From an uncultured Pseudomonadota bacterium (GTDB lineage: Bacteria > Desulfobacterota > Syntrophorhabdia > Syntrophorhabdales > CAYQXL01): a DNA stretch of 64,000 nt. Each line of letters begins with the position of its first letter. Position 1 is the stretch's first letter. Position numbers and translations under genes: made by a program. Positions 26,112 to 43,804 of this stretch are shown here, piece after piece. The stretch is from the NCBI GenBank assembly GCA_964651435.1, contig CAZYVU010000010.1, positions 11,392-75,391 on the forward strand. Reading direction: 5' to 3'. Under the pieces are notes generated by a model, which was not told the origin of the DNA, made no database searches, and saw nothing but the letters and a program-made list of their open reading frames with translations.

Positions 26112-26124
26112 CGTCGCCCCCTCC

Positions 26125-26601: not shown

Positions 26602-27497
26602 CGGCCGGTCCTCCCTCTGTTCAGCCGTCCATGATCGAGCGCCTTTGCAAGCGTTCTCCGCGTCAGCACCTCCACCATGGCGCACCGGTACTCGGCGCTG
26701 CCCCGGCCATCGGTTATGGGGGCGCACTCGGTGGCCGCCTGTGCGGCCGCCTTATCGAAGAGCCCTTCGCCGGGCGCCTCCCCCAGAAGCATCGCCTCCG
26801 CCCTCGATGCGCGAACAGCCGTGGGCGCCACGGAGCTGAGGACGATCTTCGCCCCGCAAATTTTTCCGCCGGGGCTTTCAAGCGTTATGAGGGAGGCAAC
26901 GGCGACAATGGCGATCTCCAGGGCGTTGCGGTGGCCGAGCTTCATGTACTCACCCCCCGTAAACGGCGGTGGTTCGTCAACGAGTATGGCCTCAATCAGC
27001 TCGTCGGCATCGAGAACCGTTTGGCCGGGGCCGACAAAGAACCGGTCCAGCGAAACCTCGCGGGTCCCGCGGAGGCTCGTTACCTTCGCCCGCGCACCGT
27101 AGGCGAGCAGGGCCGGTGGCAGGTCGGCCGCGGGCCTTGCCGTAGCCAGGTTGCCGCCTATGGTGGCACGATTGCGAATGAGAGGCGATCCGAGGCAGGA
27201 CGCCGCCCGGGCAAGGGCCGGAAGAACGGACCCGATGGCGGGAGACTCTTTCAGCTCTGCGGCCGTCACGAGAGGGCCGATGGAAAGGCCACGTCCCGTG
27301 CGTCTGACCCCGGCCAAATCCGGCACCCTGCCAAGGCTCACGAGGGCCCGGGGTTTTTCAACGCCCTGCTTCATCTTTACGAGAATGTCCGTGCCGCCGG
27401 CGATGATCTTGCCGTCTGCCTTTAGCCCAGCCAAACAATCGAGGGCATGAGCAAGGTCGGGCGGCTCGTAATACTCAAATCCGGGTAAGAGCAGCAT
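26598..27497 (-). CDS. Xanthine dehydrogenase family FAD-binding medium subunit (CoxM-like)
   Basis: IIAGGTDILV, ATIGGNLA and a C-terminal SAEYR motif. GGAGG RBS upstream of the ATG at 27497. Confidence 0.88.
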   Translation of the reverse strand: MLLLPGFEYYEPPDLAHALDCLAGLKADGKIIAGGTDILVKMKQGVEKPRALVSLGRVPDLAGVRRTGRGLSIGPLVTAAELKESPAIGSVLPALARAASCLGSPLIRNRATIGGNLATARPAADLPPALLAYGARAKVTSLRGTREVSLDRFFVGPGQTVLDADELIEAILVDEPPPFTGGEYMKLGHRNALEIAIVAVASLITLESPGGKICGAKIVLSSVAPTAVRASRAEAMLLGEAPGEGLFDKAAAQAATECAPITDGRGSAEYRCAMVEVLTRRTLAKALDHGRLNRGRTGR

Positions 27498-27662
27498 GAA
27501 ATATTCCTCCTACGCTAAGCATGCAAAGCATTTTCGCACATCAATCATGGCCGGCGCAAGCGCCTCTGCGGTACACGCGAAGGGTCCCCTTTTTTTTACA
27601 TATCCGACGGGAGACTCTTGCGCGTAAGGGCCCCGATGAAGATGGGGGCCAAACATCCCGCG

Positions 27663-27692
27663 TTGACAAGGGCCCACGCTCTCCGGTACTAT
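27663..27692 (+). promoter_or_regulatory. Putative sigma70-type promoter (TTGACA-N18-TACTAT) for the SYLF/radical-SAM pair
   Basis: Hexamers at 27663-27668 and 27687-27692. AAGGAGG RBS before the ATG at 27745. Confidence 0.4.
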
Positions 27693-27744
27693 TTGCCAGG
27701 TTTGATTGCCGCTGTCATACCTCACACCTTAATAAGGAGGGGCC

Positions 27745-28494
27745 ATGGACCGCAACGATTTTCAGAGGAAAAAGGGGCTTAAAGGAGCGTACGTCGCTTT
27801 CTTGCTGGTTTGCCTCTTCGTCTTTGCGCTCTGCCCGGGCACGGCACGGGCCGCCAGCGCAGAGCTCGACGCCCGCCACCTCGTCGACAAGGCAAGGTTT
27901 ACCTTTGAGAGCTTCATGCAGGCGCGAGAGATGGAGGCCTTCAGGAACCTTCTTAAGAATGCCCGCGCCCTTTATATTGCGCCCCAGGTTCTGCGCGGCG
28001 CCTTCATCTTCGGTGCCTCCGGAGGGAGCGGCGTCCTCATAGCCCGGGAGGGCATGGAGAACAAATGGGTCGGACCGGCCTTTTATACCATCGGGGACGT
28101 AAGCTTCGGGCTCCAGATCGGAGGCGACGCTTCGGAGATCATCCTTCTCATCATGTCCCAGCGCGGGATAACGGCCATGCTCGGAACAAGCCTGAAGCTG
28201 GGCGCAGACTTGAGCGTGGCCTTGGGCCCCGTTGGAATGGGCGCCAAGGCCTCGACGGCAAACCTGAGCGCCGATATCATAGCGTTCTCTCGCTCGAAGG
28301 GCCTTTACGGAGGCATTTCGGTCGACGGCGCCATCGTGGCCGTTCGGGAGAGTCTGAACTCAGCCTACTACAAGAAGCCGACGACACCTTCCGACATCTT
28401 TGTGATGCAGGAGGTCACCAACCCGCACGCCGACGACCTTCTCAACGTCGTGGCGCGGGGAGCCGCATTGGAGCCCCCAACCCCTCAGCCGTAG
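27745..28494 (+). CDS. SYLF (Ysc84/DUF500) lipid-binding domain protein, secreted
   Basis: Signal peptide LLVCLFVFALCPGTARA. FGLQIGGDASEIILLIMS, LKLGADLSVALGPVG and SRSKGLYGGISVDGAIV match the SYLF domain pattern. Confidence 0.8.
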   Translation: MDRNDFQRKKGLKGAYVAFLLVCLFVFALCPGTARAASAELDARHLVDKARFTFESFMQAREMEAFRNLLKNARALYIAPQVLRGAFIFGASGGSGVLIAREGMENKWVGPAFYTIGDVSFGLQIGGDASEIILLIMSQRGITAMLGTSLKLGADLSVALGPVGMGAKASTANLSADIIAFSRSKGLYGGISVDGAIVAVRESLNSAYYKKPTTPSDIFVMQEVTNPHADDLLNVVARGAALEPPTPQP

Positions 28495-28497
28495 AGG

Positions 28498-29781
28498 ATG
28501 ACTGTGCCCCTTGTCGGATGCACCTCCATCGAGCCCTTTGAGGTCTGCTCTATCCGGCCTCCCACGGAGAACTACAGCCTCACCTTCAGACTTACCCGGA
28601 ACTGCGGCTGGAATCGCTGCAAGTTCTGCCCCGTCTACAAGTTGGGGGCCAGGTTCAGCAGGAGAAGCATCGATGAGGTAAAGGGCGATATAGACCGGGC
28701 CCGCCGCATCGATGATCTCCTCGCGGACTTGGGGGTCGACAGCCCATCGCGACGGCACGACCTCTACGGAAAGGTCGGAGCGCTCATCGAAAAGCTGGGT
28801 GCCGGGAAAGGGAATCGGGAGGCCCACGCCACACCTGGCGACAACGATGATGATGAACGGATGGCCTGGTTCGCCTCGTGGTTCAAGGAGAAGCCTTCCC
28901 TGGAAGACAGCATTTACCACGTACTTACGTGGCGGCTTTACGGCGGAGGCACGGCCTTCCTTGGCGATGCCGATTCGCTTCTGCTGCGGCCCGACTTTTT
29001 CTCCGACGTCATGGGGTACGTCAGGGAACGGTTTCCCGCCATAGGACGGTTTACCGTATACGGCCGTACGCGGTCGGCAGTGCGGAAACCCTTCGACGAC
29101 CTTCGTGCATTCGCCCGTGCGGGCCTTCACCGCATCCATTTCGGCATCGAGAGCGGGAGTGACAGGGTACTCACGTTCATGAGTAAAGGCGAAACGGCAG
29201 GGGACCACGTGGAGGGTTGCCGAAAAGCGAGAGAAGCGGGCATCTCCCCGTCCGTTTACGTTATGCCCGGACTCGGAGGGACAGCATGGTCGGAGGAACA
29301 TGCCTACGAGACGGCACGGGTCATCACGGAGGCAAAGCCCGACTACGTGCGACTCCGCACCCTGGAGATCTTTCCGGGGACGCCTCTTGCCGAGGCCGTG
29401 GCCGCCGGAGGGTTTACGGAGGCGACAGAGGAGCAGGTGGTCAGGGAGATCAGGATCATTGTCGCACATGCCGACGGCCCCATGACGCTGGTGAGTGACA
29501 GCGCGTCAAACCTCCTCGACGTGGGCGGCAGACTTCCTCAGGACAGGGAAAAGACGCTTTCAGTGATCGATGGCTACCTGGCCATGAGCGGGCGCGAGAA
29601 GCTCGAGTTCAGCCTCCTGTCACGCCTTCAGTCCTTCCTCGGCCAGTACGGCAACCTGTCGCCTGACATTGCGAGGATCGTCGCGCCCTACCTCGGAGAG
29701 GATAGCATCAACACATCGCGTATGTCCGAGGAACTTCTTCACGGAACGATCAGGCTGATCCGTTCGAAGCTTATGCCTTAG
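28498..29781 (+). CDS. Radical SAM superfamily protein with a CX4CX2C cluster motif
   Basis: RNCGWNRCKFCPVY, then FLGDADSLL (GGE-like region), GLHRIHFGIESGS and YVMPGLGG. It starts 4 nt after the SYLF stop. Confidence 0.8.
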   Translation: MTVPLVGCTSIEPFEVCSIRPPTENYSLTFRLTRNCGWNRCKFCPVYKLGARFSRRSIDEVKGDIDRARRIDDLLADLGVDSPSRRHDLYGKVGALIEKLGAGKGNREAHATPGDNDDDERMAWFASWFKEKPSLEDSIYHVLTWRLYGGGTAFLGDADSLLLRPDFFSDVMGYVRERFPAIGRFTVYGRTRSAVRKPFDDLRAFARAGLHRIHFGIESGSDRVLTFMSKGETAGDHVEGCRKAREAGISPSVYVMPGLGGTAWSEEHAYETARVITEAKPDYVRLRTLEIFPGTPLAEAVAAGGFTEATEEQVVREIRIIVAHADGPMTLVSDSASNLLDVGGRLPQDREKTLSVIDGYLAMSGREKLEFSLLSRLQSFLGQYGNLSPDIARIVAPYLGEDSINTSRMSEELLHGTIRLIRSKLMP

Positions 29782-30707
29782 GCCGCCGACCGTCCCGGGC
29801 CCCAGCCCTTCTTCGCTTCGAGCCATACGACATAGAGGATTGCCACCACCGACGTCACTGTTGCGGGAACGACTGCCGTCTCGTTGAAAAAAAAGAGCGC
29901 CAGGCCCCCTGCGAGCCCGAAGTTCTTGAAGGTCCCGAGGAGAAGGAGGCTCGTGGACCGTGGACCGGGAACCCCCATGGTTCGGGCCACCACCTTGATG
30001 ATCGATCCGAGCACAAAGGTGCTCAGAACGGCGATTGCGGTAACCGGAAGGAGCCCCAGGGGATCGGACAAAAAGAGCCCCCTGTTGAGCCCAACCATGG
30101 TGTAGGTGAGGATGAAAAAGCTCCAGTTCGTAAGGGGTCCTTTGAGGAACTCGATCCTGGCTGCCGCACCGGTTCGAATAAGAATACGCGACAGGATCAG
30201 GGGGCCGGCGATGAGCTCCAGCAGGGTGATGATGAGCTTCCAGGGACTGACAAATCCGGCACCGAGAAGGGCCACGACGATGAGGGGCTGGATGGCAAGG
30301 GCACCGACGTAGCCACCGACGGTGCCTATAAGCGCGTACTCGTTGTCTCCCCCAAGGAAGAAGGAGAAGGGGATGACGGCCACTGCCGGCGGAACGGCGG
30401 CCAGAACGACGAACCCCGTCCAGAGGTCCGTATCGTCAATGAGAAACCGGGCCAGGAGAAGGAGCACCGTCGCATGAAGGGCATAGCTCATGAGGATGCC
30501 GGCCAAGGCCGGCTTGAGGATGTGCCTCGTCGATCGCAGCGATGCACCGGTCACGCCGAGCGTCGATATGGTCATGATGATCGCAAGCGCGGGCAGCGTG
30601 GCCCCACTCGTCCACCGGGCGGCCCCGTCCCAGACAAGGCCGAGCACGATGCCCAGCAGCATGACGGCGTTTCGGTTCTTCACAATGGTAAGAAAGGAAA
30701 TTTTCAT
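29778..30707 (-). CDS. Integral membrane permease, BASS/AEC-like fold (function uncertain)
   Basis: About 9-10 hydrophobic segments. LGTFKNFGLAGGLALFF resembles the bile-acid:Na+ symporter / auxin-efflux-carrier superfamily. ATG start. Confidence 0.6.
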   Translation of the reverse strand: MKISFLTIVKNRNAVMLLGIVLGLVWDGAARWTSGATLPALAIIMTISTLGVTGASLRSTRHILKPALAGILMSYALHATVLLLLARFLIDDTDLWTGFVVLAAVPPAVAVIPFSFFLGGDNEYALIGTVGGYVGALAIQPLIVVALLGAGFVSPWKLIITLLELIAGPLILSRILIRTGAAARIEFLKGPLTNWSFFILTYTMVGLNRGLFLSDPLGLLPVTAIAVLSTFVLGSIIKVVARTMGVPGPRSTSLLLLGTFKNFGLAGGLALFFFNETAVVPATVTSVVAILYVVWLEAKKGWGPGRSAA

Positions 30708-30839
30708 GTTGCCCCTTCACCTTCAACGCGTTATCAAAAAAAGTTAGGCAGCGGTGAGAACCGGAAACAAGTATGCCACAGGAGGCCGGCCCTGACAAGA
30801 AGCGCCGCGCAAGAGATAGGATGGTGGAGTGACGGCCCG

Positions 30840-30868
30840 TTGACAGATTAGAGGGTCGCTGCTACAAT
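30840..30868 (+). promoter_or_regulatory. Near-consensus sigma70 promoter (TTGACA-N17-TACAAT) upstream of the giant RCC1 gene
   Basis: TTGACA at 30840-30845 and TACAAT at 30863-30868 with an exact 17-nt spacer. AGGAGGA RBS at 31001-31007. Confidence 0.5.
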
Positions 30869-31014
30869 TCAAAAAAGGGAGTGGTGGTAAAATGGGCGGG
30901 GTAGATATCGAGGCACGGTCATTTCAGACTATTGAGGGGACATGGACCCTCATCTGCCGGGTTGTCTCTCACAACATAAGTACATCGAATCATTGCGCGA
31001 ATTAGGAGGACCAC

Positions 31015-34000
31015 ATGGGCCGCCGTCTTTGCTTGTTCACCTGGACAGTCATTGCTGTCATTTTCTTTACATTTCAGGCATACGCTCACGCGTCCGGCGT
31101 ACCCGGCGCGCCACAGGATGCGCTGGAGGACGCCAGCGACAACACCGTCTGGACGTGGGGCGCAAATTTCAGCGGCGAACTGGGGAATGGTACGTGGGAG
31201 CCCGGCACAAGAACCCCCGGCGAGCTGGCCGACTTTGCGGACGTAACATCCGTCGCCGCCGGCGACGCTTTCACGGTTGCCCTCAAATCGGACGGCACCG
31301 TCTGGACCTGGGGGAACAATGCGTTCGGCCAGCTCGGTGATGGGACGACAGTGAACAAGAATGTGCCGACCCAGGTGCCGACCCTCTCCGACATCATCGC
31401 GATGGCGGCCGGGCCGTATCACACCGTCGCCCTTACATCGGCCGGCACGGTCTGGGCCTGGGGCAGGAATGATTACGGTCAGGTCGGCGATGGGACGACG
31501 ACAAACCGGCTGAGCCCCGTCGTCGTCGCGGGCGTTACGGGGGTTACGGCCATTGCGGCCGGGTATGAGCACACCTTGGCAGTCAGATCGGACGGCACCG
31601 TCTGGACCTGGGGACGCAACAATGGCGGCCAGCTCGGTGACGGGACGACGACAAACCGGCTGAGCCCCGTCCAGGTGTCGGTGCTCACGGGCGCTGTGCG
31701 CTTGGCGGGCGGGGGCTGGCACTCCATGGCCCTCAAGTCGGACGGCACCGTCTGGACCTGGGGGTCGAACCTCCACGGCCAGTTGGGTGACGGCTCGTAC
31801 GACTGGAGCGTCATCCCCAAGGTGGTGCCTGGCTTCGCGGGCATAGCGAACATCGCATGCGGCGGCGACTACTCCATGGCCCTCAAGTCTGACGGCACCG
31901 TGTGGACCTGGGGTTTCGGCGGCCAAGGGTCTCTGGGGACGGGCGAGTGGACCAACAGGCTAAGCCCCGTTCAGGTGCCGGGGCTTACAGGCGTCGGAGG
32001 TGCCACCGCCAGGGCGTGCACGACAATAGCCTGGAAATCAGACGGTTCAGGCTTCTGGGCATGGGGCTGTAACGAAGCCGGCCAGTTCGGGGACGGCACA
32101 TTCGGATACCAGAATCCGAGCCCCACCGCCGTGTCGGCGCTTTCGGGCATCGCGACCATGGCAAGCGGCGCCGGTCACACGGTCGCCCTTGCAAACCCGG
32201 CACCGCCCTCGTCCTACATCCTCACCGTTGCCAAGTCGGGGACAGGAGCGGACGCCGTGACATCGTCTCCGGCTGGCATCGACTGCGGCGCCACGTGCAG
32301 CTATGTCTTTACGGCTGGAACGGTCGTCACGTTGACGGCGACCCCTGCCGCAGGCTCCATGTTCACCGGCTGGTCAGGCGGGGGCTGCTCGGGCACGGGA
32401 ACGTGCACGGTGACGCTTGATGCCGATGTTACGGTCACGGCAACCTTTGCAGCCATGCCGATCCTTACCGTTGCCACGTCAGGGACAGGGTCGGGAACGG
32501 TAACGTCGTCGCCGGCGGGCATCGACTGCGGCGCCACGTGCAGCTATGCCTTTACGGCTGGAACGGTCGTCACGTTGACGGCGACCCCTGCCGCAGGCTC
32601 CATGTTCACCGGCTGGTCAGGCGGGGGCTGCTCGGGCACGGGAACGTGCACGGTGACGATGAACAGCGCTACGGCCGTCACTGCAACCTTCGGCAATACG
32701 GCGGTCTTGACCCTCACGAGATTCGGTACCGGCCTGGGAACCGTCACGTCTTCCCCCGCGGGCATCATTTGCGGGAACACCTGCAGCGCCTCCTTCAGCC
32801 CCGGCTCCGTCGTTACCTTGACCGCAACGCCTGCGGCCGGTTCCACCTTTCTGGGCTGGCTTGGCGGCGGCTGCTCGGGCACGGGAACGTGCACGGTGAC
32901 GCCCGGCGCCGCCACGATGGTGGCCGCCATTTTCTCGTCTGCCGCAACGGGTAACATGGTCTGGGCATGGGGAGACAATTATTATTGTCAGATTGGTGAC
33001 GGGACGACGACGGACCGGCTGAGCCCCGTCCAGGTACCGGGGCTGACGGGCGTCGTGGCTGTTGCCGGAGGGGGCTATCACTCCATGGCCCTCACATCGG
33101 CCGGCACCCTATGGACCTGGGGACTCAATGAGGATGGTCAGCTCGGGGATGGGACAAGAACGCAGAGGTGCAGTCCTGTTCAGGTGCCAGGGCTTACCGG
33201 TGTTACGGCCATTTCGGGAGGTTGGGGTCACTCTCTGGCCGTGAAGGCTGACGGCACCGTCTGGGTATGGGGCGGCAACGGTTACGGTCAGCTTGGGGAT
33301 GGGACGACGACGGACCGGCTGAGCCCCGTCCAGGTACCGGGCATGGCGGGCGTTGTGGCCGCGGCTGGAGGCGGCTATCACTCCCTGGTGTTGACATCTG
33401 ATGGAACCGTATGGGCGTTCGGGCACAATACGAATGGCCAGCTCGGGGACGGCACAACGACGGACCGGCTGAGCCCCGTCCAGGTGCCGGGGCTGACGGG
33501 CATCGTGGCCGTAGCAGCAGGGGGCAGCTATTCTGCGGCCCTTAGATCGGATGGCACGGTCTGGGCATGGGGGGACAATTATTATTGCCAGATCGGGGAC
33601 GGGACGACGACGGACCGGTTGAGCCCCGTCCAGGTGCCGGGGCTGACGGACGTTGCCGGGATAGCGGGCGGCGATGCCCACGTTGTAGCAAAAAAGACGG
33701 ACGGCACCGCCAGGGCATGGGGATACAACGCTTACGGTCAGCTTGGGGATGGGACGACAACAAAGAGGTGCAGCCCCGTTCAGGTGTCGGGGCTGACAAA
33801 TGTTGCCGGCATGGCCGGGGGGTACGGGCACAGCCCGGCGCTCACATCAAGCGGTACCTTTTGGGCCTGGGGCCGCAATTTTAACGGTCAGCTTGGGGAT
33901 GGGACGACAACAAACAGATCAAGTCCTGGCCAGGTACCGGGGCTGACGGGAGGTCTCAGCGTTTCAGCGGGCTGGGAACACAGCATCGCCCTTCGGGCCG

Positions 34001-37000
34001 GTGAGACGCCCTCTTCCTACGCCCTTGCTGTCACAAGGACCGGTACCGGCGCGGGCGCGGTAGCCTCCTCCCCGGCCGGCATCGACTGCGGGGCCACCTG
34101 CAGCGCCTCCTTCAGCGCCGGCACCGTCGTTACCTTGACCGCAACGCCCGATGCCGGTTCCATCTTTACGGGCTGGTTGGGCAGCGGGTGCTCGGGCACG
34201 GGAACATGTACGGTGACACTGAACAGCAATACGGTGGTTGCCGCCCTCTTTTCACCGGAGGCAACCAGCAATGTGGTGTGGACCTGGGGACACAACGAAT
34301 ATGGCCAGCTCGGGGATGGAACGACGGCGGACAGACACAGCCCGATTGCTGTATCGGGCGTCACGAATGCCGTTGGGATTACCGGTGGGGATGCCCATAC
34401 GCTGGCTGTCACATCGGCCGGTACGGTCTGGGCGTGGGGGTGGAACCTCTATGGCCAGCTCGGGGACGGAACGACGGCGGACAGGCTGAGCCCCGTCCAG
34501 GTGCCGGGCATGGCGGGCGTTGCCGATGCTGGGGCCGGCGCCTCTCATACCGTCGCGGTGAAGTTCGACAGCACGGTCTGGGCCTGGGGAAGCAACAACT
34601 CCGGCCAAGTCGGGGACGGGACGACGACAAACAGGCTAAGCCCCGTTCAGGTGCCGGGGCTGACGGGTGTGGTGGCCATCGCGGCCGGTGGTTACCACTC
34701 CATGGCCCTCAAATCGGACGGGACCGTCTGGGCGTGGGGATGGAATGCATTCGGTCAAATCGGGGACGGGACGACGACAAACAGGCTAAGCCCCGTTCAG
34801 GTGCCGGGGCTGACGGGTGTGGTGGCCATCGCGGCCGGTGCTTACCACTCCATGGCCCTCAAATCGGACGGGACCATCTGGGCGTGGGGAGGAAATATGT
34901 ACGGCCAGGTCGGTGACGGGACAGTGACGGACAGGCTGAGTCCCGTTCAGGTGCCCGCCTTCACCGGTACTAAGGGTATTGCAGCGGGGGGCTTTCACTC
35001 TGTGGCCCTCAAATCGGATGGGACCATCTGGGCGTGGGGGGACAACACCCTGGGACAAATCGGGGACGGCACGACAACGGAACGGCGCAGTCCCGTTCAG
35101 GTGCCGGGCATGGCAGCAGTTGCACGAATCGGAGGCGGCGGCGGACACACGGTAGCCCTCGCGTCGAACGGCACCCTCTGGACTTGGGGCAACAACTCCA
35201 AGGGTCAGATCGGGGACGGAACGACGACGAACAGGCTGAGCCCCGTCCAGGTGCCGGGGCTGACGGCGGTTACGGGGATTGCCGGCGGGTGGAAGCACAC
35301 AATGGCCGTCAGGGCCGGAGGAGAGCCCACTTCCCACACCCTTACCGCCACAAGGACCGGTACCGGCGCGGGCGCGGTAGCCTCCTCCCCGGCCGGCATC
35401 GACTGCGGGGCCACCTGCAGCGCCTCCTTCAGCGCCGGCACCGTCGTTACCTTGACCGCAACGCCCGATGCCGGTTCCATCTTTACGGGCTGGTTGGGCA
35501 GCGGGTGCTCGGGCACGGGAACATGCACAATAACGCTCAGCGGCGACAGCATCGTCGTTGCCCTATTCTCACAGCAGGGAACGGATAGCAGCCTCTGGAC
35601 CTGGGGCAACAACGAGAATGGCCAGCTCGGGGACGGAACGACGACGAACAGGCTAAGCCCCGTTCAGGTGCCGGGGCTGACGGGTCTGCAAGGAACGGCG
35701 GGCGGAGCGGAACACTCAATGGCCCTGAAGTCGGACGGCACGGTCTGGGCATGGGGCAACAATTTCTACGGCCAGCTCGGGGATGGGACGACGACGGACA
35801 GCCTGAGCCCTATCCAGGTGCCGGGGCTCGCGGGCATAGTTGCCGTGGCAGCCGGGGACTATCACAGTGCGGCCTTGAAGTATGATGGTACGGTCTGGAC
35901 CTGGGGATCAAACGGCAACGGACAGCTCGGGGACGGTACGACGACGGACAGCCTGAGCCCTATCCAGGTGCCGGGGCTCGCGGGTGTCATCGACCTTGCG
36001 AGCGGCGGTTATCACATTGTGGCGCTCAAATCGGATGGCACGGTCCGGGCCTGGGGTTGGAACGAGGACGGCCAGATTGGGGACGGAACCACTACAGAGA
36101 GACTGAGCCCTGTCCAGGTGCCGGGGCTCGCGGGTGTTAAAGCTATCGCCACCGGCGACTATCATTCTATGGCCATCAAGTCCGACGGAACGGTCTGGGC
36201 CTGGGGCTGGAATGAGAATGGTCAACTTGGGGATGGGACGACGACGAACGGGCTGAGCCCTGTTCAGGTACCGGGGCTTGCGGGTATGACAGCAGTCGCT
36301 GGCGGGAACTCCCACACCGTTGCCCTAAAATCGGACGGTACGGTCTGGGCCTGGGGTTGGAACGAAGCGGGTCAGCTTGGGGACGGAACGACAACCCAGC
36401 GGCTGAGCCCTGTCCAGACAACGGGGCTGACGGGCGCTGTCACTGTCGCCACCGGCGGCTATCATTCCCTGGCCATCAAGTCGGACGGTACCCTCTGGAC
36501 CTGGGGCTGGAACGAGGACGGTCAACTTGGGGACGGGACGACGACGAACAGGCTGAGCCCTGTCCAGGTACCGGGGCTTGCGGGTATCGCGAAGATTGCC
36601 GCGGGATACGTCCATTCCCTTGCCCTCAAGTTTCCCTCCTCCTATATGCTCACCGTTACTAAGACGGGGGCCGGCACGGGCACCGTGACGTCGTCACCGG
36701 CGGGCATCGACTGCGGGGCCGTCTGCAGCGCCCAGTTCATCCAAACTACGGTCATTACCCTCACTGCCACGGCAGCATCCAACTCCTCCCTAACGGGCTG
36801 GTCAGGCTGTGACAGCACCCCTGCTGCAAACCAATGTGTGGTAACCATGAATGCCGCACGGTTTGTAGAAGCGTCATTCGCGCTGAAGACCTACGTCGTC
36901 ACCCCGTCTGCGGGCGCCAACGGCACGATGACACCTAACACGCCACAGACCGTCACCCATAACGCCACCACCTCTTTTACCGTTACCCCCGCCACGGGCT

Positions 37001-38571
37001 ACCACATCGACTCCGCAACGGGCTGCGGCGGGACCCTTTCGGGCTCCACCTACACCACGGGCCCCATCACCGCCGACTGCACGGTCAGTGCCACCTTTGC
37101 CATTAACACGTACACCATCTCCGCCTCCGTCTCCGGAGGCCACGGCACGGTCACCGTCGTAACCCCTACGGTTCCCCATGGCGGCACGGCTACTATTAAT
37201 ATTTCCCCCGACACGGGTTACCACATAGCAGGCATTACGGACAACGGCATCTCCGTGAGGATAATAAACCCCTACACCATCCAGAACGTCACGGCGGCCC
37301 ACACCATCGTCGCCACCTTTGAAGTGAACAGGTACACGCTCACGGCTACTACATCCGGACCGGGCACCGTAAGCGCCGCCGGCCTCATATGCTCCGGAAG
37401 CACGTGCACGGGCACGTATGATTACGGCACAACCGTGGCAGTGACGGCCGCACCCGCTGCGGGCTCCATGCTGAGCGGCTGGTCAGGCTGTGACAGCTCA
37501 TCGGGTAACACGTGTTCGGTGAGCATGACGTCCGACCGGAGTATCAGCGCAACCTTCATCGTTATCAAGACCTTGACCGTTTCCAAAGCCGGTTCCGGTA
37601 CCGTTGCCTCGGCCCCTCCGGGCATCGCTTGCGGCAGCGCCTGCAGTGCACCGTTCACGCCCGGCACCGTCGTAACGCTCACCCCAACTCCTGACACAGG
37701 GAATGTCTTTGCTTACTGGTCGGGGGCCTGCACGGGTAAGCTTGCGACCTGTCTTGTAACGATGGACGCCGACAAGACGGTGGGGGCCGTCTTCGTGCCG
37801 GCGAAAACAAAGACAGTAAAGCTCACCGTCACAAAGGTGAAGACAGCCAAAGGGGACGGCACCGTCGAGAGCAGCGACGGTACGATCAATTGCGGAAAGG
37901 ATTGCTCGGAACTTTTTTATCCCAATACACCCGTCCTTCTCCGCGCCACCCCCAACGCCGACTCGGTGTTTACCGGCTGGTCGGGCACAGGCATTACCTG
38001 TCCCGGTACGGGGACCTGCTCCGTTACCATGGACAAGGCCTATACGGTGAAGGCTACATTTGTCGGGCCGTCGCTTCTGAAGGTCCAAAAGGCCCCAAAG
38101 AACAAGGGAACGGGCGTCATCACCAGCAGCGACGGCGCCATTGACTGCGGAGAGGAGTGTCAGAAGAGTTATGTTTACAACACCGCCGTCACCCTGACGG
38201 CAACGCCTGATCCCGGCTCCGTCTTCATCTCCTGGACGGGCTGTGATGCTGTGTCGGCAAACGTGTGCACCTTTGCGATGAAAAAAGCGAGGACCGCCAA
38301 GGCCACTTTTGAAGGCCCCGTCATCGTCACGGTGACAAGGGCATACCAGAAGAAGGGCGCGGGGACCGTTACGTCTTCCCCGTCCGGCATCGACTGCGGA
38401 ACCACATGCAAGGCCGGGTTTACGAAGGGGACTGAGGTCACCCTGACGGCTACCCCTGCTGCCGGCTCGGTCTTTGGCGGCTGGTCAGGGGGCGGTTGTT
38501 CGGGGACGGGGACGTGTACCATCACCGCCGAGAAGACTACGACCGTGAGGGCGACGTTTATCGGGAGGTGA
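31015..38571 (+). CDS. Giant secreted protein: 4 x seven-bladed RCC1-like beta-propellers interleaved with 13 Ig-like (divergent InlB B-repeat-type) modules
   Basis: Signal-like N-terminus MGRRLCLFTWTVIAVIFFTFQAYAHA. There are 28 blades with the signature DGTVWxWGxNxxGQLGDGTTxxRxSPVQVxGL, counted 7+7+7+7. The modules are of the type GTVTSSPAGIDCGxxCS..TLTATPxxGSxFxGWSGxxCSGTGTCTVT. Confidence 0.9.
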   Translation: MGRRLCLFTWTVIAVIFFTFQAYAHASGVPGAPQDALEDASDNTVWTWGANFSGELGNGTWEPGTRTPGELADFADVTSVAAGDAFTVALKSDGTVWTWGNNAFGQLGDGTTVNKNVPTQVPTLSDIIAMAAGPYHTVALTSAGTVWAWGRNDYGQVGDGTTTNRLSPVVVAGVTGVTAIAAGYEHTLAVRSDGTVWTWGRNNGGQLGDGTTTNRLSPVQVSVLTGAVRLAGGGWHSMALKSDGTVWTWGSNLHGQLGDGSYDWSVIPKVVPGFAGIANIACGGDYSMALKSDGTVWTWGFGGQGSLGTGEWTNRLSPVQVPGLTGVGGATARACTTIAWKSDGSGFWAWGCNEAGQFGDGTFGYQNPSPTAVSALSGIATMASGAGHTVALANPAPPSSYILTVAKSGTGADAVTSSPAGIDCGATCSYVFTAGTVVTLTATPAAGSMFTGWSGGGCSGTGTCTVTLDADVTVTATFAAMPILTVATSGTGSGTVTSSPAGIDCGATCSYAFTAGTVVTLTATPAAGSMFTGWSGGGCSGTGTCTVTMNSATAVTATFGNTAVLTLTRFGTGLGTVTSSPAGIICGNTCSASFSPGSVVTLTATPAAGSTFLGWLGGGCSGTGTCTVTPGAATMVAAIFSSAATGNMVWAWGDNYYCQIGDGTTTDRLSPVQVPGLTGVVAVAGGGYHSMALTSAGTLWTWGLNEDGQLGDGTRTQRCSPVQVPGLTGVTAISGGWGHSLAVKADGTVWVWGGNGYGQLGDGTTTDRLSPVQVPGMAGVVAAAGGGYHSLVLTSDGTVWAFGHNTNGQLGDGTTTDRLSPVQVPGLTGIVAVAAGGSYSAALRSDGTVWAWGDNYYCQIGDGTTTDRLSPVQVPGLTDVAGIAGGDAHVVAKKTDGTARAWGYNAYGQLGDGTTTKRCSPVQVSGLTNVAGMAGGYGHSPALTSSGTFWAWGRNFNGQLGDGTTTNRSSPGQVPGLTGGLSVSAGWEHSIALRAGETPSSYALAVTRTGTGAGAVASSPAGIDCGATCSASFSAGTVVTLTATPDAGSIFTGWLGSGCSGTGTCTVTLNSNTVVAALFSPEATSNVVWTWGHNEYGQLGDGTTADRHSPIAVSGVTNAVGITGGDAHTLAVTSAGTVWAWGWNLYGQLGDGTTADRLSPVQVPGMAGVADAGAGASHTVAVKFDSTVWAWGSNNSGQVGDGTTTNRLSPVQVPGLTGVVAIAAGGYHSMALKSDGTVWAWGWNAFGQIGDGTTTNRLSPVQVPGLTGVVAIAAGAYHSMALKSDGTIWAWGGNMYGQVGDGTVTDRLSPVQVPAFTGTKGIAAGGFHSVALKSDGTIWAWGDNTLGQIGDGTTTERRSPVQVPGMAAVARIGGGGGHTVALASNGTLWTWGNNSKGQIGDGTTTNRLSPVQVPGLTAVTGIAGGWKHTMAVRAGGEPTSHTLTATRTGTGAGAVASSPAGIDCGATCSASFSAGTVVTLTATPDAGSIFTGWLGSGCSGTGTCTITLSGDSIVVALFSQQGTDSSLWTWGNNENGQLGDGTTTNRLSPVQVPGLTGLQGTAGGAEHSMALKSDGTVWAWGNNFYGQLGDGTTTDSLSPIQVPGLAGIVAVAAGDYHSAALKYDGTVWTWGSNGNGQLGDGTTTDSLSPIQVPGLAGVIDLASGGYHIVALKSDGTVRAWGWNEDGQIGDGTTTERLSPVQVPGLAGVKAIATGDYHSMAIKSDGTVWAWGWNENGQLGDGTTTNGLSPVQVPGLAGMTAVAGGNSHTVALKSDGTVWAWGWNEAGQLGDGTTTQRLSPVQTTGLTGAVTVATGGYHSLAIKSDGTLWTWGWNEDGQLGDGTTTNRLSPVQVPGLAGIAKIAAGYVHSLALKFPSSYMLTVTKTGAGTGTVTSSPAGIDCGAVCSAQFIQTTVITLTATAASNSSLTGWSGCDSTPAANQCVVTMNAARFVEASFALKTYVVTPSAGANGTMTPNTPQTVTHNATTSFTVTPATGYHIDSATGCGGTLSGSTYTTGPITADCTVSATFAINTYTISASVSGGHGTVTVVTPTVPHGGTATINISPDTGYHIAGITDNGISVRIINPYTIQNVTAAHTIVATFEVNRYTLTATTSGPGTVSAAGLICSGSTCTGTYDYGTTVAVTAAPAAGSMLSGWSGCDSSSGNTCSVSMTSDRSISATFIVIKTLTVSKAGSGTVASAPPGIACGSACSAPFTPGTVVTLTPTPDTGNVFAYWSGACTGKLATCLVTMDADKTVGAVFVPAKTKTVKLTVTKVKTAKGDGTVESSDGTINCGKDCSELFYPNTPVLLRATPNADSVFTGWSGTGITCPGTGTCSVTMDKAYTVKATFVGPSLLKVQKAPKNKGTGVITSSDGAIDCGEECQKSYVYNTAVTLTATPDPGSVFISWTGCDAVSANVCTFAMKKARTAKATFEGPVIVTVTRAYQKKGAGTVTSSPSGIDCGTTCKAGFTKGTEVTLTATPAAGSVFGGWSGGGCSGTGTCTITAEKTTTVRATFIGR
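32275..32658 (+). repeat. Intragenic direct repeat: two 141-nt copies (32275-32415, 32518-32658), 1 mismatch
   Basis: Read directly. The offset is 243 nt (81 codons). It covers adjacent Ig-like modules. Confidence 0.9.
34032..35525 (+). repeat. Intragenic long-range direct repeat: identical 177-nt blocks at 34032-34208 and 35349-35525
   Basis: Read directly. The offset is 1317 nt (439 codons). Both encode TRTGTGAGAVASSPAGIDCGATCSASFSAGTVVTLTATPDAGSIFTGWLGSGCSGTGTC. Confidence 0.85.
34610..34890 (+). repeat. Intragenic tandem repeat: two 131-nt copies (34610-34740, 34760-34890), 2 mismatches
   Basis: Read directly. The offset is 150 nt, which is one RCC1 blade. Confidence 0.85.
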
Positions 38572-38641
38572 AGAACTGCCAAAAGAACAGCGTATACGAT
38601 TTTTGACCTGAAGAGGCTTTTGTAGAGTCGCGACTTTGAAG

Positions 38642-39517
38642 ATGCGTGTTTATAGCAGGCACATTCTGTTCCTTGTCGTCTCAGCCGCCCTGTTCATGGC
38701 CGCGGCGACGGGGGCGAAGGGCTGCACCCTATGGGCTGCTGCCGGCGACCGAGTGGAAGGCGGCGGCACGCTCCTCGCCAAAAACCGCGACATGCCTCCT
38801 CAGGTCAGCGAGCTGAGGATATACACGCCGAAGGCGGGAAACCGCTTTCTTGGCCTCTTCCACGTAAAAGGCGCCAAGTCTTTTCCCGTGGCCGGCGTTA
38901 ACGAGAAAGGGCTTGCCATTGTGTCCGCCACGGCGAGCAGCATTCCCAGGGCCGAGAGGTACGCAACAGGGCGGGGCCTCAACGAAAAGCTGCTCACGGC
39001 CTTCGATTCTGTCGACGGCCTTCTTGCGAGCCCGGATGCCCTGTCGGCAAGCCACCCCACCTTCTATGTGGTGGCCGACCGCACAAAGATTGCCGTCATC
39101 GAGATAGGCCCCAAGGGGCAGGTTGCAACGAAAACCGAGAACAGCGGCGTGCTCTTTCATACAAACCACTACCTCGACCCTAAGCTCCTCTGGGTAAACG
39201 AAAGAACCGGCAGGAGCTCGCAGGTTCGCCTCGACCGCATCCGCGAACTCCTGGCCTCACATGCCGGACCTTTGACCCTGGAGGCCTTCACCGCCTTCAG
39301 CGAAGACACGAAGGGGGGGCCCGATGACGGCATATGGAGAACGGGCAGCGCCCCCAACAAGGAGAGAACCCTTGCCACATGGATCGTCTCCCTGCCGAAA
39401 ACCGCTGATCCCGTCGTCGCCGTTAAATTGGCCAATCCGGGGGAGCCGGTGAAGACCTTTACCTTCACCCTCGACAACTCTTTCTGGACAGATCGCTCCA
39501 AAGCCATAGTATACTGA
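38642..39517 (+). CDS. Ntn-hydrolase, peptidase C45 / acyl-CoA:6-APA acyltransferase-like, secreted
   Basis: A signal peptide is followed by GCTLWAA (candidate nucleophile Cys), then LLAKNRD and FHTNHY. The ORF-track start at 38636 is TTG; an ATG lies at 38642. Confidence 0.7.
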   Translation: MRVYSRHILFLVVSAALFMAAATGAKGCTLWAAAGDRVEGGGTLLAKNRDMPPQVSELRIYTPKAGNRFLGLFHVKGAKSFPVAGVNEKGLAIVSATASSIPRAERYATGRGLNEKLLTAFDSVDGLLASPDALSASHPTFYVVADRTKIAVIEIGPKGQVATKTENSGVLFHTNHYLDPKLLWVNERTGRSSQVRLDRIRELLASHAGPLTLEAFTAFSEDTKGGPDDGIWRTGSAPNKERTLATWIVSLPKTADPVVAVKLANPGEPVKTFTFTLDNSFWTDRSKAIVY

Positions 39518-39588
39518 GTGATACATTTACACAGGCTTTTTGCGGGGTGAGGGGGGGCAATGTGAACCTCTTTAATCGGTGAGGAACG

Positions 39589-40194
39589 ATGACGGAAGAA
39601 GACCTTCGTTGCGTCAAGGAGCTTTACCACCTTTGGAAGCCCGTTTACCCCTTCCTGGCCCGGCACGTTGCCGGACTCTATGGGAGGCACGGGGGCCGGG
39701 CCGTTGAGCTGGGGCCCTTCGCGGGCGCAATCTACGCCCTTGCGGACAGGGGCGTGGCAGAACATTTCACCCTGGCACCCTTTTCCACCGAGCTGGCCAC
39801 CTTCTTCCGGGAAGAGACGAACCATTCGGGTTACGGGTCGAGGATAGAAGTCTTGTCAACGGATCAGTCCTTTACCAACATTCCATCCTTCGGGGCTGAT
39901 CTTATCGTTTTTCGCGGAGCTTTCTTCTTTCCCGGCCATTTTCATGCCGACCTGAAGGCCGTCGGCCGCATTCTCAGCCCCGGCGGCATGGCCTTTGTCG
40001 GCGGCGGGTTCGGCAGAGACACCCCTGCAGGCGTCATCTCCTCGATAGCGGCCCGCAGCCACGAACTCAATGAACGGCTCGGAAAACAAGATGTGCACCC
40101 CCATGACCTTAAGGGCAGGATAGCGGAGGCAGGCCTTGAGGGCATGGCAACGGTGACGACGGAAGGGGGGCTCTGGGTGGTACTGAGGAAATGA
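39589..40194 (+). CDS. Methyltransferase-fold protein (degenerate motif I), function unknown
   Basis: RAVELGPFAGAIYAL..ADLIVFRGAFFF..ILSPGGMAFVGGG resembles a class I MTase layout. ATGA overlap with the downstream permease. Confidence 0.5.
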   Translation: MTEEDLRCVKELYHLWKPVYPFLARHVAGLYGRHGGRAVELGPFAGAIYALADRGVAEHFTLAPFSTELATFFREETNHSGYGSRIEVLSTDQSFTNIPSFGADLIVFRGAFFFPGHFHADLKAVGRILSPGGMAFVGGGFGRDTPAGVISSIAARSHELNERLGKQDVHPHDLKGRIAEAGLEGMATVTTEGGLWVVLRK

Positions 40195-41495
40195 ACGTAA
40201 GGTACGGCCTCGATGACCGCCCCCCGCTCAAACAGCTTATCGCCTTCGGTATCCAGTGGTTTGCCGTTTCCGTTCCCGCGCTTGTCATTATCGGCAAGAT
40301 CGTGGCGGACGTCCACTCAGCCGATGACGCCGCTCAGGTGCTTTACCTGCAGAAGATGACGTTTATTATCGGCTTTACCCTTTTTGGCCAGATCCTCTGG
40401 GGCCACCGCCTTCCACTTCTCGCCGGCCCTTCCACGGCCATTCTTATCGCCGTCCTGGCCTCCCGCCAATCGGGCACGGCGGCCATCTACGGATCGGTCC
40501 TGGCCGGCGGCCTCATACTTACCGGCATCGGCCTGACTGGGCTCTTCGGCAGGCTGCGGCGCCTCTTCACCCCCCGGGTCGTTGCCGTAGTCTTGCTTCT
40601 CATCGCATTCACCCTCATACCTACGGTGCTGCAGCTCATGATGGGGAGCGGTGCGTCGAGCAGGCCCCTGTCAAACCTCCTCTTTTCTCTTGCCCTCCTG
40701 CTCTCCATGGCCATAGCATACCAATTCCTCAGGGGCACCTTAAGGCTCACGCTCATCATCTGGACCATGGTCGCCGGTTCGGTCTCCCATCACCTCCTCC
40801 TCGCAGGCACGCCGCCCCAGGGCGCCCTTGACAGCCCTGCGGTCTTTTCGTTTTTTTTCTCGGGCCTTACCACATCCCCCGCCTTCGAGTCGGGCGTACT
40901 CCTTTCCTTTCTTTTCTCCTTCCTGGCCCTCATCGTCAACGACTTCGGCTCCATCCAGTCGCTCAACGAGATCCTCAGACCGCAAGGTGCGGCGAGAAGG
41001 ATAGACCGCGGCATAACGGCAACGGGGCTTGCCAATGTGGCTGCCGGATTTTTGGGGGTCCTGGGGCCTGTCAACTTCTCCCTCTCCCCGGGCATCATCA
41101 TGGCTACCCGGTGCGCCTCACGATTCACCCTTCTGCCGGCCGCAGCGCTTCTCTGCGTGATCTCCTTCTCGCCCGCCCTCATCGGCGTCATGGGCGCCAT
41201 TCCCGCATCCGTCATCGGCGCCGTCCTCGCCTACATCCTGTCGTCCCAGATCGCAGCCGGCCTCGGCGTGCTTATGCAGCAACAGATCCCTCTCGACTTC
41301 GAGGGAGGCCTCGTTGTGGGCATCCCCGTGCTCGTGTCGATTCTCATAGCCTTTCTCCCTGGGGCGATTCTCGGCGATGTGCCTCCATTCCTCAAGCCTT
41401 TGCTGGGAAACGGATTTGCGGCAGGCCTTCTGGTCTGTCTCGTCCTGGAGCACGTCGTTTTCCGCCGCCGGAGAGAGGTCCCTCCAACGTCATAA
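40191..41495 (+). CDS. NCS2 (xanthine/uracil/vitamin C permease) family transporter
   Basis: N-terminus PPLKQLIAFGIQWFAVSVPALVII and ~12-14 hydrophobic segments, as expected for nucleobase:cation symporter-2 proteins. Confidence 0.7.
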   Translation: MNVRYGLDDRPPLKQLIAFGIQWFAVSVPALVIIGKIVADVHSADDAAQVLYLQKMTFIIGFTLFGQILWGHRLPLLAGPSTAILIAVLASRQSGTAAIYGSVLAGGLILTGIGLTGLFGRLRRLFTPRVVAVVLLLIAFTLIPTVLQLMMGSGASSRPLSNLLFSLALLLSMAIAYQFLRGTLRLTLIIWTMVAGSVSHHLLLAGTPPQGALDSPAVFSFFFSGLTTSPAFESGVLLSFLFSFLALIVNDFGSIQSLNEILRPQGAARRIDRGITATGLANVAAGFLGVLGPVNFSLSPGIIMATRCASRFTLLPAAALLCVISFSPALIGVMGAIPASVIGAVLAYILSSQIAAGLGVLMQQQIPLDFEGGLVVGIPVLVSILIAFLPGAILGDVPPFLKPLLGNGFAAGLLVCLVLEHVVFRRRREVPPTS

Positions 41496-41570
41496 CCCCC
41501 ATTCTTGCGCTGCCATTTGCCTTCTGTTACAATTGATAGGCAGTTCAATACGTTACTACGAGGGGGAATA

Positions 41571-42008
41571 ATGAAGCTTCCGGAGTACATCACACAAGAA
41601 GAAGTGAAGAGGGTCTGCAAGGAGATCAAGGTCCGCGACTGGACAACCCTCAAAGAACCGAAGACGACACCAAAGGAGGCAAAAACCATCCTCGACCTCG
41701 TCAATACGGAGAAGATGCCCATCGACGTCAGTGAATTCCGGGCGGGCCTCGACGTGGAGCTCGAACACGGGACCCGCTTTAAGGATGCCAACGTGACGAA
41801 CAACCACCCCATCATCACGGGCATGATCGTCCTCGCGCACCTGAAGGAATCTCTCGATTACTACAAGCTCCTCGATGTAGCCGAGCTGGAGGGCGACCTT
41901 CTGAAGGCCGTCGCCAAGGGCGACATGAAGAAGACAAAGGAGAAATACAAAAAACTCGCCGCGGCGAGGATCGTCCTTGCCAAGGCGGAGGCGGCACAGG
42001 TCAAATAG
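41571..42008 (+). CDS. Conserved hypothetical protein (VELEHG motif; DUF5661-like by recollection)
   Basis: GAGGGGG RBS then ATG at 41571. Good coding pattern with GLDVELEHGTRFKDANVTNNHP. Confidence 0.6.
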   Translation: MKLPEYITQEEVKRVCKEIKVRDWTTLKEPKTTPKEAKTILDLVNTEKMPIDVSEFRAGLDVELEHGTRFKDANVTNNHPIITGMIVLAHLKESLDYYKLLDVAELEGDLLKAVAKGDMKKTKEKYKKLAAARIVLAKAEAAQVK

Positions 42009-42137
42009 GAGAAATTTGATCCGGGGCATCCATGTCTTTCGTAAGAAAACAGATGATATTCTCACCCTGATAGGCTATATTTATGACCGGGGAAGCTTCT
42101 GGAGGTGATTACAAATCATCACAAGGAGGCTTTACCT

Positions 42138-42695
42138 ATGGAAGAGAAGCTCGCAAACCCGGCACCGCTCGGCCTCATGGGATTCGGCATGACAACGGTG
42201 CTCCTCAACATCCACAATGCCGGCTTTTTCCCCATCGGGTCCATGATCCTCGCCATGGGCTTGTGCTACGGGGGGCTGGCCCAGATCATTGCCGGCATCA
42301 TGGAGTTCAAGAAGGGCAACACCTTCGGATTTACCGCTTTTACGTCATACGGCCTCTTCTGGTGGACCCTCGTGTTTATCCTCGTTTTCAAGGCCCTTCC
42401 CGGCAATCCCGAACCTTTTATGGGCTGGTATCTCTTCATGTGGGGACTCTTCACCTTCTTCATGTGGTTCGGCACCTTCGGCAAGAACAGGCTCATCCAG
42501 TTCGTATTTCTGAGTCTCACCATCCTCTTCTGGCTCCTGGCCATTCGCGATTGGACGGGAAGTCACACCGTCGGCACCATAGCGGGCTGGGAAGGCATCA
42601 TCTGCGGCCTTTCGGCGGTCTACCTCGCCATGGCTGAGGTGCTCAACGAGGCAAAGGGTCGGACCGTTCTGCCAATCGGGGACCTGGGCAAGTAA
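42138..42695 (+). CDS. satP: GPR1/FUN34/YaaH family acetate/succinate transporter
   Basis: [23 protein letters not shown] is the family signature. There are six hydrophobic segments. AGGAGG RBS before the ATG at 42138. Confidence 0.88.
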
Positions 42696-42785
42696 GTTCG
42701 GAGTGGGGAGTTCGGAGTGAAAGGCAGAAGCGGGGAAACGGCGAGAAGAGTTCGGAGTTCGGAGACCGCAGCAAGTGAGTTCGGG
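42694..42785. repeat. Cluster of GAGTTCGGRG short repeats
   Basis: AAGTTCGGAG 42694-42703, GAGTTCGGAG 42708-42717, GAGTTCGGAGTTCGGAG 42748-42764 and GAGTTCGGG 42777-42785. The same decamer occurs at 5558-5567 and 5579-5588. Confidence 0.85.
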
Positions 42786-42867
42786 TGCTAAAGAGCGTTC
42801 TCTTGCTCTGCGCTCCTAAAATTCAACGCTCTTGAAGGCCGTCAGACCGCTCGTCGAGTCCCGCAGT

Positions 42868-43793: not shown

Positions 43794-43804
43794 TTCGAGA
43801 TGGC

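Follow-up and report, generated by a model that had tools for sequence, protein, structure and literature searches.

Four RCC1-Type Propellers and Thirteen PF18998 Modules in a 2518-Residue Candidate Binding Protein Encoded on a Metagenomic Contig

Introduction

Bacterial multi-propeller RCC1 proteins (COG5184, annotated as "alpha-tubulin suppressor-like RCC1 family protein") share a blade signature of ~50 amino acids (aa) and have several complete seven-bladed propellers per chain. Most of them have a signal peptide, lack a catalytic domain and are predicted to be extracellular. Giant extracellular proteins with RCC1 repeats only, including those of Oscillospiraceae, have been described (bioRxiv 10.1101/2023.11.21.568195), and among the groups of highly repetitive propellers, the RCC1/BLIP-II group ranks third in size, with mostly bacterial members (PMC9218822). 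Here, we analyze a gene for a 2518-aa protein of this type, encoded on the forward strand at positions 31015-38571 of a 64-kb stretch of contig CAZYVU010000010.1. This whole stretch of 64,000 nucleotides (nt) is referred to as the window. The protein is like the described ones in the above features, and its matches among them have 41-50% identity over large parts of its length. While many RCC1 relatives carry anchors or sorting tags, this protein is devoid of them. Our preferred reading, to which we assign a probability of roughly 0.55, is that it is exported via Sec and, rather than being an enzyme, acts as a multivalent binding protein (an adhesin or matrix scaffold) in a Desulfobacterota-like diderm anaerobe.

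The same seven-bladed fold is known from the eukaryotic proteins UVR8 and RCC1 and from the RCC1-like domains (RLDs) of HERC1 and HERC2 (template modelling (TM) score 0.87-0.89 relative to the target, root-mean-square deviation (rmsd) 1.5-2.6 Å, 29-34% identity). The positions that vary between the blades of the 2518-aa protein map, by alignment, to the partner-binding face of these proteins. In contrast to them, it is predicted to be exported, has four tandem propellers and is built from idealised 50-aa blades, long loops being a eukaryotic feature. RCC1 proper, the guanine nucleotide exchange factor (GEF) of Ran, has a beta-wedge insertion, and UVR8 has three consecutive GWRHT motifs (the Trp triad). 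BLIP-II from Streptomyces exfoliatus, a bacterial propeller from the same superfamily, is secreted and acts purely by binding through one face. Its likeness is at the level of the fold only, and its solved structure is a single 273-residue chain without spacer modules.

The second type of repeat is related to the InlB B-repeat. Domains of this type are regarded as spacer or "periscope" domains, which project the functional domains of surface proteins away from the cell, and a beta-grasp fold is described for their prototype, the InlB B-repeat (bioRxiv 10.1101/2024.12.31.630911). Copy-number variation and a cell-surface anchor are features of periscope-type surface proteins. The 2518-aa protein has 13 tandem matches to such spacers (PF18998). 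One assembly is shorter by one module, possibly due to short-read collapse, but no wall or membrane anchor model was matched.

Domain Architecture

The gene is a single ATG-started reading frame of 2518 codons without an internal stop. Its parts are as follows.

31015-38571, + strand: complete open reading frame (ORF), 2518 aa plus stop (from the ORF reading, independent collinear assemblies and a G+C content at third codon positions (GC3) of 0.75)
31015-31086, + strand: predicted Sec signal peptide, aa 1-24, with MGRR, hydrophobic core LCLFTWTVIAVIFFTF and AYA/HA cleavage (read by eye)
31138-32196, + strand: RCC1-like propeller 1, aa 42-394, the most divergent of the four (Pfam, blade map)
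32218-32946, + strand: PF18998 modules 1-3, 81 aa each, with four Cys each (Pfam, alignment)
32950-33999, + strand: RCC1-like propeller 2, aa 646-995, 7 x 50 aa (Pfam, blade map)
34021-34263, + strand: PF18998 module 4 (Pfam, alignment)
34267-35316, + strand: RCC1-like propeller 3, aa 1085-1434, 7 x 50 aa (Pfam, structure model, Foldseek)
35338-35580, + strand: PF18998 module 5 (Pfam, alignment)
35584-36633, + strand: RCC1-like propeller 4, aa 1524-1873, 7 x 50 aa (blade map)
36634-38568, + strand: C-terminal array of eight PF18998 modules, aa 1874-2518 (Pfam, alignment)

All Pfam families that match the protein are repeat families. RCC1 (PF00415) matches in 28 stretches (1100 bits, cut-off 21.7), the RCC1-like domain family WD40_RLD (PF25390) reaches 1193 bits (cut-off 150), and RCC1_2 is also matched. 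Flg_new_2 (PF18998), the divergent InlB B-repeat, matches in 13 stretches (315.5 bits, cut-off 23.6). The blades are thus RCC1 blades and not those of another propeller family with an enzymatic role. An earlier note, made from the sequence of this region, had counted 28 blades grouped 7+7+7+7, and this agrees with Pfam and with the positional blade map (aa 42-394, 646-995, 1085-1434 and 1524-1873). The note had also placed three, one and one modules between the propellers and eight at the end. The 13 PF18998 modules (73-85 aa) are delimited in exactly this way (three at aa 402-644, one at 1003-1083, one at 1442-1522 and eight at 1874-2518), and the annotation with hidden Markov models (HMMs) proved its guess of PF18998-type repeats next to RCC1 to be correct.

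The blades are highly uniform in length. Each of the 21 blades of propellers 2-4 has exactly 50 aa, and in propeller 1 only the first and last blades have an extra 1-2 residues (51, 50x5 and 52 aa). Propeller 1 has 55% identity to the propeller-3 unit. Of the 54 Cys of the whole protein, 46 are in the PF18998 modules. In 11 of the 13 modules, four Cys form two conserved pairs (C-x3-4-C and C-x5-8-C), and modules 7 and 8 represent a Cys-poor subtype.

Propeller 2 (32950-33999) is the only one with a further Cys pattern. Blades 1 and 5 have a Cys at blade position 13 (YYCQIGDG), and blades 2 and 6 have one at position 24 (RCSPVQ). The recurrence after four blades points to an internal segmental duplication and, possibly, to disulfides between blades.

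The N-terminus, which the earlier note had described as signal-like, consists of MGRR (with two Arg), 16 hydrophobic residues and AYA/HA, which by eye fits a Sec signal cleaved by signal peptidase I (SPase I). At the other end, the protein stops flush with its last module, the C-terminus (...TTVRATFIGR) being the end of module 13. The note had seen neither a C-terminal anchor nor a secretion tag, and Pfam and NCBIfam show none. No transmembrane tail, lipobox, LPXTG or other anchor was matched (sequence, Pfam, NCBIfam). Neither Pfam nor NCBIfam detected the repeats-in-toxin (RTX) motif of type I secretion system (T1SS) substrates, a type V (T5SS) autotransporter domain, PEP-CTERM/exosortase or a C-terminal motif for type IX secretion (T9SS). 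No NCBIfam family matches the protein at all, and there is accordingly no match to the models for the T9SS C-terminal domain, PEP-CTERM, LPXTG, twin-arginine (Tat) signals, lipoproteins or autotransporters. No enzyme domain was found with Pfam (repeat families only), NCBIfam or PADLOC, and the PADLOC defence-system models do not match.

Fold of the Propellers and Spacer Modules

Module 4, propeller 3 and module 5 were modelled together with AlphaFold2 (AF2). The mean predicted local distance difference test (pLDDT) score is 85.7, and most of the propeller is above 90. The propeller has 28 strands, in the order of one, then six times four, then three, which fits seven four-stranded blades with a 1+3 closure. 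In a Foldseek search of the PDB, the propeller model superposes on UVR8 (E 3e-39, TM 0.87, rmsd 1.6 Å, 34% identity) and also on the RLDs of HERC2 and HERC1 and on RPGR and RCC1 (E 1e-39 to 1e-30 and TM 0.8-0.89 for the whole set). Bacterial BLIP-II is a more distant match (1jtd_B, E 3.7e-22, TM 0.84 relative to the target). A sequence search of the PDB retrieves the same eukaryotic RLD families, with E-values for a single propeller down to 1e-98. The model of propeller 3 and the blade map together show each RCC1 group to be a complete seven-bladed RCC1-type beta-propeller. The earlier note had called for the prediction of one propeller, and the result bears out the seven-bladed fold.

An AF2 model of module 13, built on an alignment of the 13 modules, has a pLDDT of 90.5 and is a seven-stranded all-beta domain. 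Its best PDB match is an adhesion-exoprotein domain (2kyw), which is not significant (TM 0.57-0.59); stalk domains of Gram-positive adhesins and pilins rank next (E >=0.1). InlB was not found among the top 50 PDB matches. The modelled module also appears to differ from the beta-grasp prototype in that a Cys-x3-4-Cys loop is placed where a helix is expected. The modules had previously been designated Ig-like. The all-beta part of this description stands, but the family is the divergent InlB B-repeat, so that the term applies only loosely.

Blade Variation and the Putative Binding Face

The variation between blades is concentrated at one set of positions. Among 26 aligned 50-aa blades, the signature W5, W7, G8, N10, G13, Q14, G16, D17, G18, P26, V29, G41, H44 and A47 is near-invariant. 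In the same alignment, entropy peaks at positions 9, 11, 12, 42 and 43 (2.4-3.2 bits), with a moderate increase also at positions 35-38 and 46. W, Y, F, D, E and N are frequent at the five peak positions, and the four propellers differ in the residues that they have there. Across the blades, positions 42/43 are mostly G/Y. In propeller 4, position 9 is W and position 43 is Y in four of the seven blades each.

A HMMER alignment to UVR8 relates position 9 to W94, W198, W250 and W302, positions 11 and 12 to D96 and F97 (E43 and D44 in the first blade), and positions 42 and 43 to the W and R of the GWRHT motifs. As established by structural work on UVR8, these residues form the face of the dimer interface. 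RCC1, RLD2 of HERC2, RPGR and BLIP-II bind their partners via the same face, and structures of their complexes are among the Foldseek matches. By this homology, the hypervariable positions would sit on the "top", ligand-contacting face of each propeller.

Blade-to-blade comparison reveals no simple positional orthology between the propellers. The adjacent blades 3.3 and 3.4 are very similar, with 44 of 50 residues identical. Amplification and conversion at the level of single blades have been described for repetitive propellers, and the pattern observed here fits (PMC9218822).

Relatives and Abundance

The earlier note had considered multi-propeller RCC1 proteins of such regularity to be rare in bacteria. 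This does not hold. A full-length search, in which 8000 candidates were scored, retrieved 5455 proteins at E<=1e-20; the lengths of the top 120 are 1465-4407 aa, and many of these have 28-78 blades as counted with a blade HMM. When one propeller was searched against 1.84 billion cluster representatives, 213,620 matched at E<=1e-3, and 76,851 still did so at E<=1e-30. All of the 150 best matches in that search are multi-stretch proteins (1132-7235 aa), and at least 28 blades are present in 95 of the 124 new top representatives. Regularity is not exceptional either. The mean blade identity of 0.587 ranks 11th among ~95 relatives, and a spacing of 50 aa is the commonest in the family. Together with the published surveys cited in the Introduction, these numbers make the 2518-aa protein an ordinary member of a very abundant class and no surprise to the specialist.

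Its combination of four propellers with 13 PF18998 modules is a minority architecture, though a recurrent one. RCC1 blades and PF18998 modules are also combined in P0064 (14 blades and 13 modules), P0026 (21+19), P0075 (21+7), P0053 (35+4), P0329 (27+14) and P0338 (21+9). The best match in the full-length search has 48% identity over 47% of the query, and no near-identical or orthologous entry is present in the databases searched. An exact look-up in a public gene index did not retrieve the 2518-aa protein.

Proposed Function and Alternative Explanations

In the function that we propose, the signal peptide would route the 2518-aa protein through Sec. The four self-contained propellers would serve as binding heads, and ligands would be contacted via the top face, with its aromatic and acid-rich positions 9, 11, 12, 42 and 43. 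The 13 all-beta PF18998 modules, which contain putative disulfides, would space the heads, with the eight C-terminal ones forming a projecting stalk. As the faces of the four heads differ, they could bind several ligands or, with avidity, one polymeric ligand.

The protein is most likely exported, because of its N-terminal sequence, its Cys pattern and the signal peptides and extracellular tags of its relatives. Paired Cys of this kind are typical for domains outside the cytoplasm. Most relatives that have the same repeats start with a signal peptide, and some of them carry PF18962, PF00404 or PF00353, a prepilin N-terminus, an IPTL-type C-terminus or peptidase domains of the S8, M36 and C1 families. 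We take PF18962 to be a T9SS tail, PF00404 to be a dockerin and PF00353 to be an RTX repeat in these relatives. The protein itself most likely lacks catalytic activity and has a binding role. Its putative ligand would be a polysaccharide or a protein, either from the matrix or from partner cells.

Several points weigh against this proposal. The signal peptide was called by visual judgement of the sequence. The face assignment is based on homology to UVR8, and relaxed constraint would by itself also be expected to make loop positions highly variable. A characterized close homolog was not found. The genes around the RCC1 gene give no clue to its function, and the nearest relatives that were available do not share the locus. 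Neither a secretion-system gene nor a signal for outer-membrane secretion or for anchoring was found when window ORFs were scanned against Pfam. For a diderm, this means that the protein might stay in the periplasm.

A more specific version of the proposal has a low probability. In it, the propellers would be lectin-like or otherwise ligand-specific heads with four different specificities. In syntrophic anaerobic aggregates, they would cross-link matrix polysaccharide, partner cells or both, the reach of the protein being tuned by gain or loss of spacer modules. A search of the literature on the function of extracellular bacterial RCC1 proteins in sludge, extracellular polymeric substances (EPS) and secretomes retrieved nothing specific.

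It is unlikely that the protein is exported by Sec without crossing the outer membrane, and that it is a periplasmic or outer-membrane-vesicle protein, e.g., a scaffold or binder of envelope polymers. The host is most likely a diderm, neither a T1SS, T5SS or T9SS tag nor PEP-CTERM, a lipobox or an anchor was detected, and secretion-system genes are absent among the ORFs scanned against Pfam, all of which speaks for this reading. However, a beads-on-a-string chain of 2518 aa that ends in a stalk of eight modules is a layout typically seen in surface or extracellular proteins, and relatives carry extracellular sorting domains. In addition, substrates of the type II secretion system (T2SS) have no recognizable linear signal, so that the absence of a tag is no argument against secretion.

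We consider it improbable that the protein is a BLIP-II-like, multi-headed inhibitor, its top faces blocking secreted enzymes of competitors or of the own cell. BLIP-II, which was retrieved by fold, is established to bind its target through one propeller face. It is a secreted binder (PMC9218822). The gene adjoining the RCC1 gene codes for an exported Ntn (N-terminal nucleophile) hydrolase of the C45/penicillin-acylase family, which might be seen as a target. Yet, BLIP-II is absent from the phmmer matches at E<=0.001, its blades are shorter and form only one propeller, and relatives do not keep the C45 gene next to an RCC1 gene.

A eukaryote-like function is very improbable, either as an effector that mimics the Ran GEF, as Legionella LegG1/PieG, or as an intracellular regulator, e.g., a UVR8-like sensor. 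The best matches by sequence and by fold are indeed eukaryotic RLDs (HERC1, UVR8, HERC2, RCC1), and Legionella effectors with RCC1 repeats exist (PMC7157520). The signal peptide of Sec type and the disulfide-type modules do not fit an intracellular role. The uniform 50-aa blades of propellers 2-4 leave no insertion for the beta-wedge of RCC1. There is no GWRHT triad as in UVR8, just four scattered GW.H[ST] or GGW.H motifs, isolated from each other and distributed over three propellers. The source is apparently anaerobic sewage or digester material, and the host is taken to be a free-living or syntrophic anaerobe. No families of the type IV secretion system (T4SS) were found among the scanned ORFs.

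Gene Integrity

Most short-read contigs end within the RCC1 gene, as is expected from its repeats. Independent contigs from other samples were recovered through the neighboring genes. Contig L002, from a different sample, equals positions 24654-36397 of the window at 99.88% without gaps, and its partial product of 1794 aa differs from the window protein at one residue. Contig L017 equals positions 35955-49517 at 99.985%. Scaffold L016 is collinear across the whole gene except for two gaps of 100 N. In total, the gene is covered from end to end, collinear and in frame, at ~99.9% or better by no fewer than three independent assemblies that come from different samples. The blade and repeat copies are only 60-77% identical in DNA, with the exception of modules 1 and 2 (86-92%), so that assembly collapse is unlikely in the blades.

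The differences between samples are concentrated in the first two B-repeat modules. In assembly L001, the first spacer has two modules, in frame, compared to three in the window and in L002. L001 lacks one 243-nt module, while the rest of the gene differs by 0-4 bases per contig. Compared to window positions 32209-32660, L001 (13723-14161) and L016 (2630-3004) have a mosaic module 1, with ~20 substitutions within 100 nt. This suggests either real length and allelic variation (gene conversion, copy-number change) or a local assembly collapse.

The RCC1 gene is real and intact and is not a mis-assembly; the sole doubt concerns two or three modules in the first spacer. The earlier note had raised an interruption of the ORF by repeat mis-assembly, and no interruption is seen in any of the independent assemblies. 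There is hardly any room for an artefact or a decaying, functionless repeat gene, since the breaks of short-read contigs, the varying module number and the mosaic module 1 are outweighed by the in-frame tiling from different samples, the low DNA identity of most repeat copies, a strong Shine-Dalgarno sequence and promoter, and native codon usage.

Expression Signals

The expression signals upstream of the gene are as follows.

30840-30868, + strand: sigma-70-type promoter-like site, TTGACA-17-TACAAT, with an extended -10 TG (11/12 matches)
31004-31009, + strand: Shine-Dalgarno sequence AGGAGG, 5 nt upstream of the ATG (read from the sequence)

The promoter-like site has 11 of 12 consensus matches, compared to 0.3 such sites expected in shuffled sequences, in support of the near-consensus promoter proposed by the earlier note. 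It implies a 5' untranslated region (UTR) of ~140 nt. A regulatory RNA was considered for this region, such as the cyclic diguanylate (c-di-GMP) riboswitches upstream of large adhesins, but was rejected. Rfam gives no match to the UTR at the gathering score nor at E<=1, and its folding is ordinary compared to shuffled sequences (z = -0.21). Horizontal transfer of the RCC1 gene is likewise unsupported, as its GC3 of 0.75 is the same as that of the neighboring genes. No further copies of RCC1 or B-repeats were found elsewhere in the 64-kb window.

Neighborhood and Host

Upstream of the RCC1 gene is a divergently oriented gene for an SBF-like permease. Three co-directional genes follow downstream.

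38642-39517, + strand: C45/AAT-family (penicillin-acylase-like) Ntn-hydrolase-like protein with a signal peptide ending ...AKGC (downstream gene 1)
39589-40194, + strand: protein of 201 aa with no assigned family (downstream gene 2)
40191-41495, + strand: NCS2 purine/pyrimidine permease (downstream gene 3)

No terminator-like or promoter-like site was found in the 70-nt gap after the RCC1 stop codon, and the three genes are possibly co-transcribed with the RCC1 gene. The earlier note had stated that the gene is not in an operon with an obvious secretion partner. No secretion-system gene was found among the window ORFs scanned against Pfam; the denial of an operon is unproven. Cleavage of the C45-family signal at AKG/C would make the Cys the new N-terminal nucleophile.

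The neighborhood was compared in several sets of relatives. Eleven genome loci with a homolog of the neighboring, upstream radical SAM gene (52-62% identity; one with 27%) have no RCC1 gene, C45 gene or other neighbor in common with the window. Five metagenome loci with a C45 homolog (43-54% identity) have no RCC1 gene upstream. A functional link to the C45 or radical SAM protein is therefore unlikely. The context of P0053, the closest protein of the same architecture, has nothing in common with the RCC1 locus. For a permease relative with 70% identity, the contig begins directly ahead of the permease gene.

A diderm anaerobe of Desulfobacterota type is the most likely host. This assignment is derived from the best named relatives of two neighboring proteins, the radical SAM protein and the permease, which are 52-62% identical to proteins from metagenome-assembled genomes of Deltaproteobacteria, from Syntrophorhabdus and from Syntrophaceae. 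The samples are apparently sewage or digester-type metagenomes, judging from their names.

Additional features of the window were noted. Positions 1-22000 contain a large biosynthesis cluster for surface polysaccharide (O-antigen/EPS type), set apart from the RCC1 gene by a molybdoenzyme operon. The cluster codes for a GT2 glycosyltransferase, sugar epimerases/dehydratases, UDP-GlcNAc 2-epimerase, RmlD, an ABC transporter ATPase and an ATP-grasp protein. It further codes for a Wzx-like flippase, hexapeptide transferases, a GFO/IDH oxidoreductase and a 766-aa Wzy_C-TPR fusion. The other features are located downstream.

46361-47947, + strand: PIF1-like SF1 helicase with a C-terminal WYL domain
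48003-49499, - strand: YncE/lactonase-like beta-propeller protein, 10 kb downstream of the RCC1 gene
55000-57432, + strand: EutB and EutC (large and small subunits of ethanolamine ammonia-lyase), apparently fused in an 810-aa ORF
62249-63604, + strand: DDE transposase (DUF772/DDE_Tnp_1) near the end of the window

On the Joint Genome Institute (JGI) contig of P0140, two genes downstream of a homologous permease gene, a 798-aa protein has the same weak propeller families as the protein at 48003-49499, together with a weak PF18998 match. B-repeat modules may thus decorate other propeller types in this lineage. The G+C content falls from ~0.61 to 0.52-0.57 downstream of ~42 kb (42000-64000). This drop and the transposase may indicate a boundary between regions of different origin.

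Significance

As a single gene, the RCC1 gene is of little weight, being one of tens of thousands of cluster representatives, many of which have 4-11 propellers. To our knowledge, no function has been established experimentally for the multi-RCC1 class outside special cases (BLIP-II, the Legionella effectors). The 2518-aa protein is a tractable representative of this class, with idealised 50-aa blades, clean domain limits, four distinct faces and an intact gene in several samples. Identification of its ligand would aid the annotation of many metagenomic "RCC1 family" genes and might reveal a component of the cohesion of anaerobic granules or flocs. If its propellers are ligand-specific heads, this would be a first functional handle on the very large class of bacterial extracellular multi-RCC1 proteins.

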